Shown one piece after another: positions 36,821 to 52,082 of a DNA stretch of 64,000 nucleotides. Made by a program: the position numbers and the translations under genes. Source of the stretch: a virus; the IMG/VR virus record IMGVR_UViG_3300024255_000002; one strand, given 5' to 3'. Numbering within the stretch: the first letter of the stretch is position 1; every line of letters starts with the position of its first letter. Below the pieces are notes generated by a model. The model saw nothing but the letters and a program-made list of their open reading frames with translations. It did not search any database and was not told where the DNA came from.

Positions 36821-37369
36821 ATGATATATGAATTATTACCACCAACTGATCCAAGAGTGCTTTCAAGTGTTGCACTTTTTGATATAGAGGTATTTAAAAA
36901 AGAAGAAAAGGTAGAACTAAAAGAGTTTATAGATAATATGTTTTCCACTATGAAGAACTACGGTGGTATAGGCCTATCAGCAAATCAAGTTGGTAAACCA
37001 TATCGTATGTTTGTTATGGGTGGCCATGCAGATATATCAAAAGGTAAAAAGTGGACTTGTATCAATCCTGAAGTTGTTGAGTTTAGTAAAGAGACAGTTA
37101 GATACAAAGAAGGATGCTTAACTTTTCCATTTCTATTCTTAGATATAGAAAGACCTAGATTAATAAAAGTAAAATATCTAAATGAAAAACTAGAAACAGT
37201 TGAAGAAACATTTGATGGTTTAGTTAGTAGATGTTATCAACATGAATTAGATCATATGCATGGATCAGTTTTTACAGAAAAAGTTACTAAGTTTAAATTA
37301 GATAGAGCAATAGCAAAAAGAACTAAAGAAATAAAAAGAGTAGAAAAATTATGGCAACAAAAGTCTTAA
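36821..37369 (+). CDS. def: peptide deformylase
   Basis: GIGLSANQVG, EGCLTFP, QHELDH. Confidence 0.93.
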   Translation: MIYELLPPTDPRVLSSVALFDIEVFKKEEKVELKEFIDNMFSTMKNYGGIGLSANQVGKPYRMFVMGGHADISKGKKWTCINPEVVEFSKETVRYKEGCLTFPFLFLDIERPRLIKVKYLNEKLETVEETFDGLVSRCYQHELDHMHGSVFTEKVTKFKLDRAIAKRTKEIKRVEKLWQQKS

Positions 37370-43601: not shown

Positions 43602-43844
43602 TTGAGTATAAATGTTGAAGTAAGAGGCGGAAACTTAGAGAAGGCTCTAAGAGTTCTAAAACGTAAAGTTCAAAAAGAAGGTATAGTAAATACACTAAGA
43701 GATAAACAGTATTTCCAAAAACCATCAGAAAAAAAACGAGTAAAAGCAAAAGAACGTGCTAAAGTTTTAAAAAAAAAACAACATCAAAATGATGAAATGC
43801 TCGGATATCGTATGGTTAAGGGTGTTAAGGTAAGAAAAATTTAA
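43602..43844 (+). CDS. rpsU: 30S ribosomal protein bS21 (TTG start)
   Basis: 'V.VR.GNLEKALRVLKRK.QKEGI....R..QYF.KPSEK.R'; SD aggaga. Confidence 0.9.
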   Translation: MSINVEVRGGNLEKALRVLKRKVQKEGIVNTLRDKQYFQKPSEKKRVKAKERAKVLKKKQHQNDEMLGYRMVKGVKVRKI

Positions 43845-43996: not shown

Positions 43997-45085
43997 ACCC
44001 ATATTAAAGTTTTGTTACAATCGGTTTTTCTATGCTAAATACTTATGATAGTTTTAAACTATCAATCTCTAAAGTAAAACACAGGAAACCTAAATGAGAA
44101 AATTATTATTCAGTTTAATTATGATTTTGATGACAACTACATTATATGCAAGGGATCAAATATCAATTGTTGGTTCTTCAACCGTATATCCATTTTCAAC
44201 CGTAGTAGCAGAAAAAGTTGGTAAACAAGGCATTAAAACGCCTGTAATTGAATCAACTGGTACTGGTGGTGGTATGAAATTGTTTTGTAAAGGTATCGGT
44301 GTCAATACACCTGATATGACAAATGCTAGTCGTGCCATTAAAACAAAAGAAAGAGATATGTGTTTTAACAATGGTGTTACAGACATATCACAAGTCATTA
44401 TTGGTTTAGATGGTATTGCAATTATTCATAGTGCAAGTAACAATACAGTAAACTTTACAGTAGAACAATTATGGCAGGCCTTATCAGTAAAAGGTTCTTT
44501 ACCTGAAAAATGGTCTGACATAGATTCAAGTTTACCCAATGTTAAAATTGGTGTACTTGTTCCACCACCAACTTCAGGTACAAGGGATGCTTTTAATGAA
44601 TTAGTAATGGCAAAAGGCTGTGCTAAAGAAGTTAAAGAGGCAAACAAAAAAGATTGTACTTTATTAAGAGAAGATGGTGCCGCTATTGAAGCCGGTGAAA
44701 ATGATACTTTGATTATTAACAAGATTGTGACCGAACCTAATAACTTTGGTATATTAGGTTATTCTTACTATGACGCAAATAAAGACAAAGTAAGAGCAGT
44801 TACAATTAATGGTAAGTCAATATCAAAACAATCTATACAAGATGGTTCTTATCCAATAAGTCGACCATTATACTTTTATGTAAAAAATCAACACAAAGGT
44901 GTCATACCTGGTATTGATGAATACATTAAAGAGTTTACTTCAAAAAGAGCAATTAGTAATAGAGGTTACTTAACTGATTTAGGTTTAGTGCCTTTGGCTA
45001 ATCCACAAGAAGCAATTACACAAGTAAAATAAAATAAAAACCTCGAGGTTTGCCAGTTTAACTCCGTGAAAAAATGAAACTGGCG
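43955..45085 (+). repeat. 38-bp identical direct repeats flanking pstS (43955-43992, 45048-45085)
   Basis: gtttgccagtttaactccgtgaaaaaatgaaactggcg at both sites. Confidence 0.95.
44094..45032 (+). CDS. pstS: phosphate ABC transporter periplasmic binding protein
   Basis: Signal peptide; 'GSSTVYPF', 'STGTGGG.K.FC.G', 'NASR', 'PP..SGTRD.F', 'YP.SRPL'. Confidence 0.93.
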   Translation: MRKLLFSLIMILMTTTLYARDQISIVGSSTVYPFSTVVAEKVGKQGIKTPVIESTGTGGGMKLFCKGIGVNTPDMTNASRAIKTKERDMCFNNGVTDISQVIIGLDGIAIIHSASNNTVNFTVEQLWQALSVKGSLPEKWSDIDSSLPNVKIGVLVPPPTSGTRDAFNELVMAKGCAKEVKEANKKDCTLLREDGAAIEAGENDTLIINKIVTEPNNFGILGYSYYDANKDKVRAVTINGKSISKQSIQDGSYPISRPLYFYVKNQHKGVIPGIDEYIKEFTSKRAISNRGYLTDLGLVPLANPQEAITQVK

Positions 45086-45175: not shown

Positions 45176-45628
45176 ATGACCAATACAAAAGCACTATCTA
45201 TTTTCAATCAATTAAGACCATTATCAGTAGGATTTGACGACATGTTCGATCATTTCGAATCTATGTTTGACCACCCTACGGTTAATTATCCACCATACAA
45301 TCTAGTTAAGACAGGTACTCATAAATTCGATATTGAGCTCGCTCTTGCAGGTTTCAATAAAAAAGATATTGAAATCACTAGTGAGAACAATATATTAACT
45401 ATCGAATCAAAAGTTAAATCTGTTGTTGACGATTCAGTAGGTGTTGATAAACCAAAAGATCAGGCAATGATTCATAAAGGTATTTCAAAAAGATACTTTA
45501 AAAGATCGTTCACTATTGCTGATGATGTTGAAGTTAAAGGTGCCGAGTTAAAAGACGGCCTGTTAAAAGTATCAATGGAGAAAATTATTCCAGATGCTAA
45601 AAAACTAAAAACCATTAACATTAAATAA
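45176..45628 (+). CDS. hsp20: small heat-shock protein (Hsp20/IbpA)
   Basis: 'NYPPYNL', 'ELALAGF', 'HKGIS.R.F.RSF', 'A.LKDGLL'. Confidence 0.95.
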   Translation: MTNTKALSIFNQLRPLSVGFDDMFDHFESMFDHPTVNYPPYNLVKTGTHKFDIELALAGFNKKDIEITSENNILTIESKVKSVVDDSVGVDKPKDQAMIHKGISKRYFKRSFTIADDVEVKGAELKDGLLKVSMEKIIPDAKKLKTINIK

Positions 45629-45679: not shown

Positions 45680-45708
45680 TTGACAAAATTCAAATTTTAG
45701 TGTATAAT
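45680..45708 (+). promoter_or_regulatory. consensus sigma70 promoter for rubrerythrin
   Basis: TTGACA-17-TATAAT. Confidence 0.8.
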
Positions 45709-45743: not shown

Positions 45744-46169
45744 ATGAGTGATTTAAAAGACACAAAAACAGCACAAAATTTAAGAGCTGCTTTTCAAGGC
45801 GAAAGTGAGGCAAATAGAAGATACCTTTACTTTGCACAAAAGGCAGATATTGAAGGTGCGAATGAGGTTGCTTCTGTATTCAGATCAACCGCTGAAGGTG
45901 AAACTGGCCATGCTCATGGTCATTTAGAATACCTTGAAGAAGTTGGCGATCCTGCAACAGGAGAACCAATGGGTAACACAGAGCAAAATCTTCAATCAGC
46001 AATCAAAGGTGAAATACACGAATACACAGATATGTATCCAGGTATGGCTAGAACTGCTAGAGAAGAAGGTTTTGATGAAATTGCAGATTGGTTTGAGACA
46101 CTTGCAAAAGCAGAAAAATCTCATGCTGGTAAATTTCAAAAAACATTAGACGCCTACAAAGGTGAATAG
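45744..46169 (+). CDS. rubrerythrin (short diiron ferritin-like form)
   Basis: 'GES.ANRRY..FA..AD.EG', E..HA twice, 'EY.DMYP..A..AREEG'. Confidence 0.92.
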
Positions 46170-46173
46170 TTAT

Positions 46174-46224
46174 ATGGGTGGCACTTTGTCACCCATTGAC
46201 AAATTAAAAAAAATGTGATATAAT
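46174..46224 (+). promoter_or_regulatory. hairpin followed by sigma70 promoter (leaderless start at 46231)
   Basis: atgggtg...cacccat; TTGACA 46196-201, 17 nt, TATAAT 46219-24. Confidence 0.75.
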
Positions 46225-46230
46225 AATATT

Positions 46231-46494
46231 ATGAAATTCAGTGAAGATAAAATTTTAAAAGAAGTCCAAGACTATATTAAATCAACATACGGTCAACATT
46301 ACTCATCTGGTAAAGAGGGTATTCAGACATTAGATTTATTAAAGTCTATTGGAATTAAAAGTGATTTTTGTTTAGGTAACGCTATAAAATATCTTAGTCG
46401 TTATGGCAAAAAAAATGGTAAAAATCGTAAAGACTTGCTTAAGGCAATTCATTACGTTGTGCTATTATTAAATAATGAAGGAGAAAATAAATAA
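46231..46494 (+). CDS. DUF3310-like protein
   Basis: 'HY', 'FC.GNAIKYL.RYGKKNG....DL.KA.HY'. Confidence 0.7.
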   Translation: MKFSEDKILKEVQDYIKSTYGQHYSSGKEGIQTLDLLKSIGIKSDFCLGNAIKYLSRYGKKNGKNRKDLLKAIHYVVLLLNNEGENK

Positions 46495-47159
46495 TGAAAA
46501 TAAGTGATAATACAGTTAGTATCTTAAAAAACTTTTCAGATATTAATAACAATATACTGTTCAAACCAGGTAACAGTATTTCAACAATGTCAACTATGAA
46601 AAACATCATGGCAAAAGCAGATGTTGAGGAAGAGTTCGAACAAGAATTTGGCGTATATGATTTGCCAGAATTTCTAAGAGCAATCGACTCATTCAAAAAA
46701 CCAGTTCTTAAATTTAACGGTGCTGCTAATCTAAAAATAAATGATGAAGGTACTTCTTTGTCAGCTAGATATGCATTTGCTGATAAATCAACTTTGGTTA
46801 CACCACAAAAAGAAATTAACATGCCAGACAAAACAGTATCGTTCACTTTAAAAGATAGTGACTACGAATCTGTAAAAAGATTATATACTAATCTAAGTCT
46901 ACCTGATATTGCTTTTATAGGTGAAAAAGGTAAAATCAAACTAGTTGCGTTAGATAAAAAGAACAATAACTCAAATGAATCATCAATTACAGTTGGTGAA
47001 TCAGATGTTGACTTTACTGCTTACATCAAGGCAGAGAATATGAAAATTATTCCTGGTGAATATGATGTTGCATTATCGAAGGCTAAGATTGCACATTTCA
47101 TAAACAAAAAGGTAAAAGTCCAATATTGGATTGCATTAGAAGCAGACTCAACATTTTAA
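46494..47159 (+). CDS. gp45: sliding clamp gp45
   Basis: 'MK.S..T...LKNFS.IN', 'FG.YDL.EFL', 'YWIALE'. Confidence 0.93.
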   Translation: MKISDNTVSILKNFSDINNNILFKPGNSISTMSTMKNIMAKADVEEEFEQEFGVYDLPEFLRAIDSFKKPVLKFNGAANLKINDEGTSLSARYAFADKSTLVTPQKEINMPDKTVSFTLKDSDYESVKRLYTNLSLPDIAFIGEKGKIKLVALDKKNNNSNESSITVGESDVDFTAYIKAENMKIIPGEYDVALSKAKIAHFINKKVKVQYWIALEADSTF

Positions 47160-47169
47160 GGAGGTCTAA

Positions 47170-48114
47170 ATGTCAGATTTCCTATGGGTGGAAAAGTATC
47201 GTCCGAAGCAAATATCGGATTGTATTTTAAGTGAGGACTTAAAAAATACCTTTACAAAGTTCTTAGACAATAAAGAATTACCAAATCTTCTCCTTTCAGG
47301 CACAGCGGGTACGGGCAAGACAACAGTTGCTCGTGCCTTATGTGAAGAATTAGGTTGTGATTATATCATAATCAATGGTTCAGATGAGGGTAGGCATATT
47401 GATACACTAAGAACCACAATTAAAAACTTTGCATCCACAGTATCTTTAGACGATACAAAAAATCATAAAGTTGTAATAATTGACGAGGCGGATTATATGA
47501 ATCCTGACTCAGTTCAACCTGCATTAAGAAACTTTATGGAATCGTTTCATAAGAATTGTAGATTTATTTTTACTTGTAACTTTAAAAACAAAATCATACC
47601 TGCGTTACATAGTCGTTGCACAGTTATTGATTTTCGTATTACAAATGGTCAAAAAGTAAAAACAGCACAGGCATTGCTTAAAAGACTTGGTAATATACTT
47701 GACGATGAAAGTATCGAGTATGATAAACGAGTACTTGCTGAGTTGATACAAAGACACTATCCAGACTTTAGAAGAACAATCAATGAATTACAAAGATATT
47801 CTGTAAGAGGTAAGATTGATAGTGGCATACTTGTATCATTGTCTGAAATTAACAATAAAGAGTTAGTGAAGATGTTAAAAGAAAAACGATTTACCGATAT
47901 GAGAAAATGGGTTATTCAAAACCTAGATCAGGATCCGTCTTCTTTGTTTACAAGTATCTATGATATTCTTTACAAATCATTACATCCACAATCGATACCA
48001 GCTGCTGTATTAACAATTGCTGACTATCAATATAAATCTGCTTTTGTGGCAGACCATGAGATCAATATGGTCGCATGTTTAACCCAAATTATGGCCGAGT
48101 GTAAGTTCAAATAA
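47170..48114 (+). CDS. gp44: clamp loader large subunit gp44
   Basis: LWVEKYRP, GTAGTGKT, IIDEAD, LHSRC. Confidence 0.96.
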   Translation: MSDFLWVEKYRPKQISDCILSEDLKNTFTKFLDNKELPNLLLSGTAGTGKTTVARALCEELGCDYIIINGSDEGRHIDTLRTTIKNFASTVSLDDTKNHKVVIIDEADYMNPDSVQPALRNFMESFHKNCRFIFTCNFKNKIIPALHSRCTVIDFRITNGQKVKTAQALLKRLGNILDDESIEYDKRVLAELIQRHYPDFRRTINELQRYSVRGKIDSGILVSLSEINNKELVKMLKEKRFTDMRKWVIQNLDQDPSSLFTSIYDILYKSLHPQSIPAAVLTIADYQYKSAFVADHEINMVACLTQIMAECKFK

Positions 48115-48122
48115 AACTCAAA

Positions 48123-48266
48123 ATGACTAGTAAGAAAAAGCACAATCCATTCGCTCGTGAATTAAGACAAACTAAATACAAACAAAGAGTTGTAAAACCT
48201 AAAAAAGGTAAACGTTCTTTCAAAAGAAAAACAAAAGAAGATGAAGATTGGAGCGGAATAGTATAA
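48123..48266 (+). CDS. ArfA-like alternative ribosome-rescue factor (47 aa, absent from ORF track)
   Basis: MTSKKKHNPFARELRQTKYKQRVVKPKKGKRSFKRKTKEDEDWSGIV*; matches the ArfA core QRVxKxKKGKxSxxRK. Confidence 0.6.
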   Translation: MTSKKKHNPFARELRQTKYKQRVVKPKKGKRSFKRKTKEDEDWSGIV

Positions 48267-48418
48267 TGGCACGAAGAACATTTTGGAGAAAACTCATCGT
48301 AAGATGTAGAATGTTTTGGGCTGACGTGAGAGGTCATCATGGTAAAGTTTGGGATTATGAACCAGGCGATTACTATATGGGTTCACATAAAGGACATAAA
48401 AAACACGAAAAACATTAA
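48266..48418 (+). CDS. small basic/His-rich hypothetical protein (50 aa, absent from ORF track)
   Basis: TAATG overlap with previous ORF; MARRTFWRKLIVRCRMFWADVRGHHGKVWDYEPGDYYMGSHKGHKKHEKH*; ends 2 nt before gp62. Confidence 0.6.
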   Translation: MARRTFWRKLIVRCRMFWADVRGHHGKVWDYEPGDYYMGSHKGHKKHEKH

Positions 48419-48420
48419 TA

Positions 48421-48819
48421 ATGATTGAATATAAACTAGGTGATTACTTAAATGCCATCAATTGGTCTAAGATAAACTTACTTGATGGTGATGATATAAC
48501 ATGGGAAAAGAAGTTTGCCCCATTTATTATTAATCGTTGCTTATCGCAACACGTTGATACAATAATGATGGCAAATGAAATGAATCAAAGACACGGCCTT
48601 TCTAAAAGGTCACAGTTTCATTTTTTACTAAATAGTATTCGTAAGAGAAAAAGATTTGGTGGTAAATGGATATCTACCTCTAAATCTAAAAACTTAGAGT
48701 ATGTAAAAGAATATTATGGTTATAGTAACATCAAAGCTAAACAGGCCTTAGACATACTTGATAATAAACAATTGAAACTTATCAAAGAAAAACTTGATAA
48801 GGGTGGGAGAAGAAAATGA
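48421..48819 (+). CDS. gp62: clamp loader small subunit gp62
   Basis: 'PFIINRCLS...DT...ANEMN', 'YYGYS..KA..AL.IL'. Confidence 0.9.
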   Translation: MIEYKLGDYLNAINWSKINLLDGDDITWEKKFAPFIINRCLSQHVDTIMMANEMNQRHGLSKRSQFHFLLNSIRKRKRFGGKWISTSKSKNLEYVKEYYGYSNIKAKQALDILDNKQLKLIKEKLDKGGRRK

Positions 48820-49244
48820 GTGAAGGACTTAAATGGTCGCCTGACAGTATGTTAGAGGTTACCCTTAAACAACCCGATGATTTTCTAAAAGTAAGAGAGA
48901 CACTTTCCAGAATAGGTGTGGCAAGTCGTAAAGATAAAACTTTATTTCAAAGTTGTCATATACTACACAAACAAGGAAAGTATTACATAGTTCATTTCAA
49001 AGAATTATTTGCTTTAGACGGCAAACAAGCAACATTAGCTGAAAACGATATACAAAGAAGAAACACAATATCAATCTTATTACAAGATTGGAGTTTGATC
49101 TCTATCGTTAAACCTAATGAGGCAGAAAACAAAGCACCATTATCTCAAATAAAGATAATTGCTTTTAAAGAGAAGAGCGAATGGAACTTACAGGCGAAAT
49201 ATAACATCGGTAAGAAAATAAATAAAGACGAAACAACTGAATAA
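48816..49244 (+). CDS. regA: translational repressor RegA
   Basis: 'DDFLKVRETL.RIG', 'QSCHILHKQG.YYIVHFKELF.LDG'. Confidence 0.96.
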   Translation: MSEGLKWSPDSMLEVTLKQPDDFLKVRETLSRIGVASRKDKTLFQSCHILHKQGKYYIVHFKELFALDGKQATLAENDIQRRNTISILLQDWSLISIVKPNEAENKAPLSQIKIIAFKEKSEWNLQAKYNIGKKINKDETTE

Positions 49245-49546: not shown

Positions 49547-49575
49547 TTGACTTTTTCACATTTTTGTGTTATAAT
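49547..49575 (+). promoter_or_regulatory. sigma70 promoter for gp43 (leaderless)
   Basis: TTGACT-17-TATAAT, then 5 nt to ATG 49581. Confidence 0.8.
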
Positions 49576-49580
49576 ATAGT

Positions 49581-52082
49581 ATGAATCTAGCGAGCCATTT
49601 CTATACAAGTGTTTTAGAGCATAAAGGTAAACTTCTTATAAGAGGTGTTGCCAACGGAGAGTCGTATCTAAGTAGGATCAATTATAGACCAACTTTGTTT
49701 ATGCCTAGTAAAACACAAACGGCATACAAGTCACTAGACAATATACAATTGGCACCTAAAAGATTTGATTCTATTTCAAAGGCAAAACATTTTTATGACG
49801 AGTATAAATCTATTCCAGAATATAAAATCTATGGAATGAATCGTTATCAATATCAATATATTGCTGACGAATATAAAGACGACATAAGATGGAACAAAGA
49901 TTATATTAAGATATTCACACTTGACATAGAAACCGAGTGTGAGAACGGCTTTCCCGATCCTGATACTGCAAAAGAAACTATTATTTGTATAACAGTTAAG
50001 AACCATAGTAACAAACAAATTCTTACATGGGGAACTGGTGACTTTATTGCTAAAAAAGCAAATGTAACTTATATCAAATGTCAAAATGAAAAACATCTTC
50101 TATTAGAGTTTCTAAAATTCTGGTGTAAAAATCATCCTGATATATTGACTGGTTGGAATGTTAGATTTTTTGACATGCCATATTTGATGAATAGAATGAG
50201 ATACCTTTTTGATAATGATACTATTAACAAAATGTCACCTTGGAATTATGTTAATGCTGATCGTGTTCAAATGGGTCAAAACAATAAACAGTATTGGAAT
50301 ATATTAGGTGTTTCTATATTAGATTACTTTGAACTGTATAGAAAATTTACCTATGTAAGGCAAGAGTCTTATAAACTAGATTACATTGGTAAAGTAGAAC
50401 TAGGCGAACAGAAATTAGAAAATCCTTACGATACATTTAAAGAGTTTTATACAAAAGATTATCAAAAGTTTGTAGAATATAATATCCAAGACGTTGAACT
50501 TGTTGATAAACTAGAAGATAAAATGCGTTTGATTGAGTTATGTTTAACTATGGCATACGATTACAAAGTAAACTATAACGATGTGTATTCGCAAGTAAGA
50601 TGTTGGGATACATTAATCTATAATCATCTAAGAAAAAAGAATATAGTAATACCACCAAGAGAAGACCATGAGAAGTCAACTCAATACGAAGGTGCGTATG
50701 TAAAAGACCCACAACCAGGATTGCATGAATGGATTTGTTCGTTTGATTTGAACTCACTATATCCACACTTGATTATGGAATATAATATAAGTCCTGAAAT
50801 GTTCGCTGGTGTAGAACCTAGATCAGTAGGTGTAGAAAACTTCTTAGCAGAAAAACTAAATCTTAATTTTGCAAAAGATAAGAATGTTACCATTGCACCA
50901 AACGGCGCCATGTTTAAAAAAGATAAACAAGGTTTCTTGCCTGAACTAATGGAAAAAATGTATACCGATCGTGTTGTTTATAAAAAGAAAATGATCGAAG
51001 CAAAAAAAGAATTTCAAAAGACAAAGGATCCTATCTATTCAAATGAGATTGCAAGATGTAATAATATTCAAATGGCAAAAAAGATTTCTCTAAACTCTGC
51101 TTATGGTGCCATTGGTAATCAATACTTTAGATACTTTGATGTTAAACAGGCAGAAGCAATCACACTTGGTGGTCAGTTGGCAATTCGTTGGGTAGAACGT
51201 GATGTAAATGCATTTATGAATAAGATATTACAAACAACCAATGTAAATTATGTTGTTGCGTCTGATACAGATTCTATCTACTTAAAACTAGATAAGTTAG
51301 TTGAAAAAGTTTGTAAAGATAAATCAATTGATCAAGTTGTAGATTTTATTAACAAGGCCGCTGAAGAAAAAATACAAAAAGTAATTGATAAGAGTTATGA
51401 AAAACTTGCCGAATATATTAATGCGTATGATCAAAAAATGATTATGAAACGAGAGGCAATTGCAAACAAAGGTATATGGGTTGCTAAAAAACGTTACATG
51501 ATGAACGTATTTGATGAAGAAGGTATTAGATTTGAATCACCTAAGTTAAAGATTATGGGTGTTGAGGCAGTTAAGTCATCAACTCCAGAGGTTTGCCGAG
51601 GTAAAATTAAAGACGCAATTAAAATTATTATGAACTCAACGCAAGATGATTTGATTAAGTTTGTTGCAGATTTCAAAAAAGATTTCTTTAAATTAAAACC
51701 TGAAGAAATTGCCTTTCCTAGATCGTGTAATAATATTGACAAGTATATAGATTCTTCAAATCTGTATATAAAAGGAACTCCAATACATGTAAAAGGTTCT
51801 TTAATATACAATCATTATCTAAGAACTCATAAATTAGAATCTAAATATCCATTAATTAAAGATGGTGAAAAAATAAAATTCTTAATGTTGAAGTTGCCTA
51901 ATCCTGTAAAAGATACTGTGATTGCATTTTCAACTAAAATACCAAAAGAGTTTAACCTACACAAGTATGTTGACTATGATGTTCAATTTGAAAAAACATT
52001 TTCTGATCCATTGAGGTTTATCTTAAATGCTATCAACTGGAAACTTGAAGAAGAAGCAACACTAGAGGCATTTTTCGAATGA
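49581..52082 (+). CDS. gp43: family B DNA polymerase gp43
   Basis: Exo DIET, FD.PY, YN..D; pol SFDLNSLYP, K..LNSAYG, SDTDS. Confidence 0.98.
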   Translation: MNLASHFYTSVLEHKGKLLIRGVANGESYLSRINYRPTLFMPSKTQTAYKSLDNIQLAPKRFDSISKAKHFYDEYKSIPEYKIYGMNRYQYQYIADEYKDDIRWNKDYIKIFTLDIETECENGFPDPDTAKETIICITVKNHSNKQILTWGTGDFIAKKANVTYIKCQNEKHLLLEFLKFWCKNHPDILTGWNVRFFDMPYLMNRMRYLFDNDTINKMSPWNYVNADRVQMGQNNKQYWNILGVSILDYFELYRKFTYVRQESYKLDYIGKVELGEQKLENPYDTFKEFYTKDYQKFVEYNIQDVELVDKLEDKMRLIELCLTMAYDYKVNYNDVYSQVRCWDTLIYNHLRKKNIVIPPREDHEKSTQYEGAYVKDPQPGLHEWICSFDLNSLYPHLIMEYNISPEMFAGVEPRSVGVENFLAEKLNLNFAKDKNVTIAPNGAMFKKDKQGFLPELMEKMYTDRVVYKKKMIEAKKEFQKTKDPIYSNEIARCNNIQMAKKISLNSAYGAIGNQYFRYFDVKQAEAITLGGQLAIRWVERDVNAFMNKILQTTNVNYVVASDTDSIYLKLDKLVEKVCKDKSIDQVVDFINKAAEEKIQKVIDKSYEKLAEYINAYDQKMIMKREAIANKGIWVAKKRYMMNVFDEEGIRFESPKLKIMGVEAVKSSTPEVCRGKIKDAIKIIMNSTQDDLIKFVADFKKDFFKLKPEEIAFPRSCNNIDKYIDSSNLYIKGTPIHVKGSLIYNHYLRTHKLESKYPLIKDGEKIKFLMLKLPNPVKDTVIAFSTKIPKEFNLHKYVDYDVQFEKTFSDPLRFILNAINWKLEEEATLEAFFE

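Follow-up and report, generated by a model that had tools for sequence, protein, structure and literature searches.

The stretch of DNA analysed here, referred to as the window, comprises 64,000 nt of the virus record IMGVR_UViG_3300024255_000002 (IMG/VR). The genome is that of a pelagimyophage-like, T4-like phage, and its nearest cultured phages at the DNA level are the Pelagibacter phages Mosig EXVC030M and HTVC008M. The T4-type replication module of the window starts with a DUF3310 ORF at 46231, followed by gp45 (46494..47159), the genes for the large (gp44, 47170..48114) and small (gp62, 48421..48819) subunits of the clamp loader, both on the + strand, regA (48816..49244), a 97-aa ORF lying between regA and gp43, and gp43 (49581..52082). 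Two small ORFs occupy the gap between gp44 and gp62. The first of these (48123..48266, + strand, TAA stop included) begins 8 nt after the end of gp44 at 48114 and encodes a 47-aa product, MTSKKKHNPFARELRQTKYKQRVVKPKKGKRSFKRKTKEDEDWSGIV, which we term ArfA-like on the basis of its matches to Pfam and to a PDB profile, and of a frame kept in related contigs. Its TAA stop (48264-48266) overlaps the ATG at 48266 of the next ORF, forming a TAATG junction. This coupled ORF, designated ORF2 (48266..48418, + strand), encodes 50 aa and belongs to a separate conserved small-protein family. An earlier note on this DNA had described a 47-aa ORF between gp44 and gp62, coupled to its downstream neighbour. 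The coordinates and the peptide that it quoted were correct, the flagged ORF is the first of the two in the gap, and the coupling is present, the partner being the 50-aa ORF and not gp62.

Upstream of the replication module, the window encodes peptide deformylase (36821..37369), ribosomal protein bS21 (43602..43844), a PstS-like protein (44094..45032), Hsp20 (45176..45628) and rubrerythrin (45744..46169), and no tRNA or tmRNA was detected in the window by ARAGORN. Peptide deformylase and S21 have been reported as core genes of pelagimyophages, in an account that does not mention a rescue factor (PMC7029224). A perfect match to the sigma-70-type promoter consensus (TTGACA-17-TATAAT, 12/12), assigned by consensus only, is present at 46196..46224 on the + strand. 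The DUF3310 ORF, gp45, gp44, the ArfA-like gene, ORF2, gp62, regA and the 97-aa ORF all run downstream of it, and the next comparable match on the + strand (11/12) is found at 49547, ahead of gp43. No terminator-like site was found between gp44 and gp62, or inside the ArfA-like ORF. These consensus matches suggest that the gene may be co-transcribed early with the clamp and clamp-loader genes. A further perfect sigma-70-type hexamer pair is present at 45680.

The same start, the 8-nt spacer after gp44 and the TAATG junction were present in five related contigs, one from TARA (L003) and four from IMG/VR (L004-L007). Comparison of the six copies revealed 13 variable codon sites that were synonymous only and 6 that were amino-acid-changing. 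Five of these 6 fall within residues 2-16, while in residues 17-47 the sole amino-acid change, beside 6 synonymous sites, is the G31R of the window. This codon pattern indicates a translated, constrained gene under purifying selection. The product ends in an acidic and hydrophobic tail, EDEDWSGIV (48237..48263, + strand), which occurs in myophage-context and metagenomic copies and is invariant in the six copies, with synonymous changes.

We determined the likeness of the product to ArfA by profile searches. The assignment made in the earlier note held as far as homology is concerned, since Pfam ArfA (PF03889) matched residues 18-39 of the window copy with an E value of 6.5e-5, but the score of 22.8 bits did not reach the gathering score of the family (25.5 bits). 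Three KGKGS-bearing relatives, 77-89% identical (P0001, P0002 and P0003), scored 33.5-34 bits, over the cut-off, and the nearest virus record (G001/L055) scored 32.9 bits. The sub-threshold score of the window copy thus tracks G31R, as near-identical copies with Gly pass. A profile (A3) built from 31 family members gave significant matches in the PDB to ArfA chains only (E 3e-7), and aligned without gaps to K12-K44 of E. coli ArfA; the E. coli core quoted in the earlier note, FRQRVEKNKKGKGSYMRK, is as found in the ArfA chains of this alignment. The first non-ArfA chain was uS14, at E 0.18. The resemblance to the uS14 N-terminus (3j9w_AN, 5njt_N) is confined to a KKNPIAK..R.PKYK segment, with non-significant E values of 0.18-0.51. 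When control genomes were searched with the family at E 0.001, a match was obtained in E. coli only. The NCBIfam scan of the ORF gave no match, and the PHROGs scan gave just two weak matches, both to families of unknown function. The 47-aa peptide found no match in the phage collection by tblastn, probably because the complexity filter was on, and tblastn with a longer, N-extended relative recovered HTVC027P from that collection. Judged from the profiles, the ArfA homology appears sound for the orthologous group, with the window copy one substitution short of the cut-off.

E. coli ArfA (YhdL; PF03889; PDB 5MGP, 5MDV, 5U4I, 5H5U) is homologous to the phage product over its residues 12-44, with no gaps. 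The two have in common a conserved Asn, an aromatic residue (F25/Y19), a QRV(E/V) strand and a KKGK-x-S-(Y/F)-x-RK basic segment, and the phage product is close in length to the mature form of E. coli ArfA (52-55 aa). In E. coli, F25 of ArfA packs on V198, F217 and W319 of RF2 and the Q27-E30 strand extends the RF2 beta-sheet, the two together recruiting RF2 (PMC8012679; PMC5378476). The codons for Y19-K20-Q21-R22-V23-V24 (48177..48194, + strand) align with F25-E30, which provide this aromatic contact and docking strand; Y19 corresponds to F25 and QRVV to Q27-E30 in the ungapped alignment, a correspondence of sequence only. The basic segment K25-K38 (KPKKGKRSFKRKTK; 48195..48236, + strand) aligns with the segment of E. 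coli ArfA that lies in the empty mRNA channel. When RF2 of one SAR11 genome was aligned to E. coli RF2, V198, F217 and W319 were all found to be kept.

Other parts of E. coli ArfA have no counterpart in the phage ORF. Its hydrophobic N-terminal minidomain (I11, A18, L19, L24), which orders on RF2 opening and activates RF2 (PMC5378476), is not kept, the corresponding positions being charged in the phage ORF (K5, R12, E13 and K18), and residue 12 differs between close relatives (R, C or S). Unlike E. coli ArfA, the phage ORF has six fewer residues ahead of the conserved Asn, KE (K38-E39) in place of the KH motif (K44-H45), R for the second Gly of KGKGS, a normal stop, an acidic WSGIV end, and neither a hydrophobic C-terminal extension nor an intragenic hairpin. 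The earlier note had rightly described a stop-terminated copy with no long hydrophobic tail: an in-frame TAA is present and the product ends in the acidic ...WSGIV. Folding of the phage ORF was no better than that of shuffled controls (z +0.54 and -0.14). With an in-frame TAA and no hairpin above shuffled sequences, the E. coli device, a non-stop mRNA under tmRNA control, is absent. ArfA/RF2 pairs are species-specific (PMC8012679). Complex prediction with SAR11 RF2 (alignment A4) and the ArfA-like peptide (A3) gave a score of 0.02, against a mark of 0.32, and speaks neither for nor against such a complex. ArfT of Francisella tularensis, compared here by its published description, is also very small (40 aa) and stop-terminated, with a basic KKGGS-type C-terminal segment; it recruits RF1 or RF2 and is confined to Francisella (PMC6299226). 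Since the 40-aa, stop-terminated ArfT works, so small a factor is workable (PMC6299226).

The closest cellular relatives of the phage product were found in SAR11. A word-seeded search with E values up to 10 yielded 7,815 proteins, nearly all from marine metagenomes, many of which carry the JGI label 'alternative ribosome-rescue factor'. A scan in which each prokaryotic species was represented by a single genome yielded at least 466 relatives, of which the best 80 were all from Pelagibacteraceae. PF03889 matched once per genome in 111 of the 151 Pelagibacteraceae genomes searched (110 of 150 without the unpublished genome G153, which this tally includes), and 75 of the matches were over the cut-off. 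Among 301 genomes sampled evenly from the class that includes Pelagibacteraceae, 8 gave a match, 3 of them from SAR11. A 2024 survey had reported no arfA in 2,376 Alphaproteobacteria (PMC11633108). Contrary to that survey, SAR11 does carry genes that are, by their predicted products, of the ArfA type.

The chromosomal mini-ArfA of SAR11 is 53-77% identical to the phage product over ~30-43 residues, and has the same core, NP(I/F)A..L...KYK.R(V/I)VKPKKGKGSFKRK. Like the phage ORF, the SAR11 ORFs, of 33-44 aa, are stop-terminated and have no significant hairpin; none was found beyond shuffled controls in five SAR11 ORFs (z +0.54 to -0.76 for phage and SAR11 ORFs taken together). Unlike the phage ORF, the SAR11 copies stop soon after KRKKK and lie in a chromosomal context, and the EDEDWSGIV tail was not seen in any of the SAR11 chromosomal copies examined. 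In the 1.2-Mb SAR11 genome G002, arfA has a photolyase-related gene before it and a sodium:solute symporter gene after it, an ordinary chromosomal context. Of 79 distinct genome-locus copies from SAR11 and a few other alphaproteobacteria, only 2 lack KKGKGS. The earlier note had set the phage copy against a host ArfA made from a non-stop mRNA. This contrast fails for the likely host, in which ArfA is short, stop-terminated and free of a significant hairpin. As the SAR11 copies are stop-terminated too, the stop-terminated design was inherited and not invented by the phage. The phage gene is best placed in a lineage common to its probable host, and SAR11 is the likely host, given the identity of the nearest phages and the occurrence of relatives of the ArfA-like gene in SAR11. 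In a tree of 186 distinct core sequences (35 columns), which has one well-supported branch and no root, phage/WSGIV copies and SAR11 copies clustered apart (0 of 500 label shuffles as low). Since the tree is unrooted and poorly supported, the direction and number of phage-host transfers are not readable from it.

The complete-looking SAR11 genome G002 (L149/L151, L057) encodes SmpB, RF1 and RF2, and an RF-1-domain search of it returned RF1 and RF2 only, with no ArfB-type protein. Therefore, mini-ArfA may be the sole alternative rescue factor of this genome. In prfB of G002, a stop codon lies in frame shortly ahead of the main reading frame, as is usual for genes that use programmed +1 frameshifting. 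A GC-rich element, …CAGGGGCGGCU(A/U)AGCCUGAGAUG…, was observed shortly downstream of SAR11 arfA in two genomes (L056:3160-3195, L057:3120-3150); the same element lies upstream of the sodium:solute symporter gene and may be a riboswitch-like leader.

Among phages, the EDEDWSGIV tail or variants ending in WSGIV were found in T4-like myophage contigs, and also in 37 distinct metagenomic core sequences. In the myophage contigs, the WSGIV-tailed gene is found at other genome positions, near RNase H, gp59, Cpn10 and 2OG-Fe(II) oxygenases. The gene was called hidden in the earlier note, a description that no longer suits it, as the same family has already been annotated as ArfA in the pelagiphage HTVC027P, gp30 of which is published as an ArfA-domain protein transcribed both early and late in infection (PMC12753301). 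HTVC027P gp30 is likewise phage-borne, stop-terminated and from a phage of SAR11 (61% identity over 28 aa). It differs from the window gene in its length of 58 aa, an N-terminal WDGRSR...RIF extension, KKGRGS, the lack of a WSGIV tail and its place in a podovirus beside the small terminase gene. Gene g10 of Citromicrobium phage RXM is also published as ArfA, and is likened to the window gene by this published annotation alone (PMC8953757). Phage ArfA-like genes are thus already known, and the window adds the setting in a pelagimyophage clamp-loader operon, the WSGIV tail and G31R. Many relatives in IMG/VR (L008-L054) have NP(I/M)A(K/R)(D/E)LRTPKYKQRVV without the GKG turn (KSKK-x-Y-x-RK). Other viral forms carry an N-terminal WDG(K/R)SR...RIF extension or a tandem duplication (P0005, P0007, P0066).

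The slot between gp44 and gp62 carries other genes in related phages, namely a 2OG-Fe(II) oxygenase in Mosig and HTVC008M (L001:2585-3154; L002:2877-3437) and Dam in cyanophages. In a myophage of another lineage (L144:6001-6827), the first 4 nt of a 2OG-Fe(II) oxygenase gene (PF13759) are shared with the ArfA-like gene. A 938-bp metagenomic contig (L181:270-515) has a single 81-aa ORF between a gp44-like end and gp62. In the product of this ORF, P0123, an N-extended ArfA-like protein is represented by its N-terminal part, which runs to ...TPKFKP and is joined to the ORF2 core (SIVKARMFWADIRGHHG...). Seen on one contig from one sample, P0123 represents a natural deletion-fusion or else a chimera created in assembly.

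The CGT codon of R31 (48213..48215, + strand) is GGT or GGA, encoding Gly, in all relatives, and turns KGKGS into KGKRS. Concern over this change, already voiced in the earlier note, proved justified. It arises from a single GGT to CGT substitution, the five close relatives carry KGKGS, and of the 213 distinct family sequences that were aligned to the profile, the window copy alone has Arg at site 31. KKGKGS was present in 176 of 184 distinct host-genome and metagenomic sequences, none of which has R at site 31, and of 28 distinct viral-context relatives, 20 lack the GKG turn. In E. coli ArfA, activity is reduced but not abolished by single substitutions within the KGKGS region (PMC6299226). 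HTVC027P has KKGRGS, which indicates that the motif tolerates some change. G31R is possibly a sequencing or assembly error, a neutral variant or the mark of a weakened copy; the window copy may be weakened by this substitution in an otherwise invariant GKG turn.

Taken together, we assign a probability of about 0.55 to the reading that the ORF encodes an RF2-dependent ribosome rescue factor made early in infection. It would be a phage copy of the SAR11 miniature ArfA, placed within an early transcription unit of clamp, clamp-loader and regA genes. Given such an early unit and a normal stop, the product would be expected from the start of infection, without tmRNA control. On a ribosome halted at the 3' end of a broken message, the K/R-rich segment of the product (residues 25-38) would occupy the vacant mRNA channel, and Y19 and the QRVV strand would engage the beta-sheet of host RF2, which would then hydrolyse the peptidyl-tRNA and allow the ribosome to be recycled. 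The phage would gain extra rescue capacity, with no tagging for proteolysis, in a small cell of few ribosomes during message degradation. We infer ribosome binding, recruitment and activation of RF2, and the benefit to the phage, from homology with E. coli ArfA. A link to the cleavage of host mRNA during takeover, proposed in the earlier note, is likewise hypothetical. Against the rescue-factor reading stand the sub-cut-off Pfam score, G31R, the lost minidomain, KE for KH, the viral relatives without GKG and the species specificity of ArfA/RF2 pairs. The fusion on L181 also counts against it, as only the N-terminal ArfA-like part is kept there, so that the channel-binding half can be lost.

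The loss of the N-terminal residues responsible for RF2 activation in E. coli ArfA, set beside a channel segment that is the best-conserved part of the product, would also fit a protein that binds the channel and does something other than RF2-dependent release, a possible though somewhat unlikely alternative. Such a protein could compete with tmRNA-SmpB, or its tail could recruit a different partner. Competition with tmRNA-SmpB could keep truncated phage products untagged or blunt a tmRNA-dependent host response, and an SmpB-tail peptide has been reported to block tmRNA-SmpB binding (PMC8012679). The tail, invariant in the phage clade and not seen in SAR11 copies, is in keeping with a different role. 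However, the RF2-docking strand and the aromatic residue are as strongly conserved as the tail, host RF2 retains the contact residues, and the presence of the same core in host chromosomal copies argues for an ordinary cellular function. A more far-reaching version, which we regard as speculative and rather improbable, is that the whole myophage clade, with its WSGIV tail and diverged N-terminus, represents a retooled channel-binder and not simply an extra dose of ArfA. It might, for example, block tmRNA-SmpB or bring a phage or host partner to stalled ribosomes, possibly in concert with the 50-aa product of ORF2; one related phage carries the two as a fusion.

The variable cargo of the gp44-gp62 slot and the L181 deletion-fusion, which loses the C-terminal half of ArfA in that same slot, raise the question of whether the window copy is a dispensable or decaying passenger, weakened by G31R and with little role in infection. 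G31R, at a site where all other motif-bearing sequences examined have Gly, would agree with decay. We consider this unlikely: apart from G31R, the window copy retains its reading frame, start, stop overlap and residues 17-47, and the six copies bear the mark of purifying selection. Moreover, E. coli ArfA stays active, though less so, after single changes within the KGKGS region (PMC6299226), and some change in the motif is tolerated in HTVC027P. That the product is an unrelated lysine-rich nucleic-acid-binding peptide, resembling ArfA by chance of composition, is highly improbable. Its very basic, low-complexity sequence, the empty result of the complexity-filtered tblastn in the phage collection and the weak resemblance to uS14 would be expected of such a peptide, but the profile matches are specific to ArfA in both Pfam and the PDB, E. 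coli was the only control genome with a match, and the ungapped 33-residue alignment covers non-basic sites (N, P, aromatic, Q, V, G, G, S, aromatic) as well.

If the rescue factor is active, a phage of the most abundant marine bacterium would top up the back-up ribosome-rescue pathway of its host, with peptide deformylase and ribosomal protein bS21 encoded elsewhere in the window. As such genes are already annotated in other phages, the gain is incremental. The phage-specific tail and the natural G31R substitution provide ready-made constructs for probing the tail and the KGKGS turn.

The 50-aa ORF2, coupled to the ArfA-like gene, did not match Pfam or PHROGs. AlphaFold2 modelling from 41 sequences gave a mean pLDDT of 64 and one N-terminal helix, too weak for a fold search. 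A candidate origin of ORF2 as a diverged paralogue of the ArfA-like gene was ruled out by hhalign (probability 0.1%). Its family comprises 107 clusters at 50% identity (E up to 0.001), with the core motif (L/I)IV(K/R)LRMWYADIRGHHGKRW(D/N)YEPGDWYMGR followed by a basic tail, and ORF2 is more conserved than the ArfA-like ORF at the DNA level.
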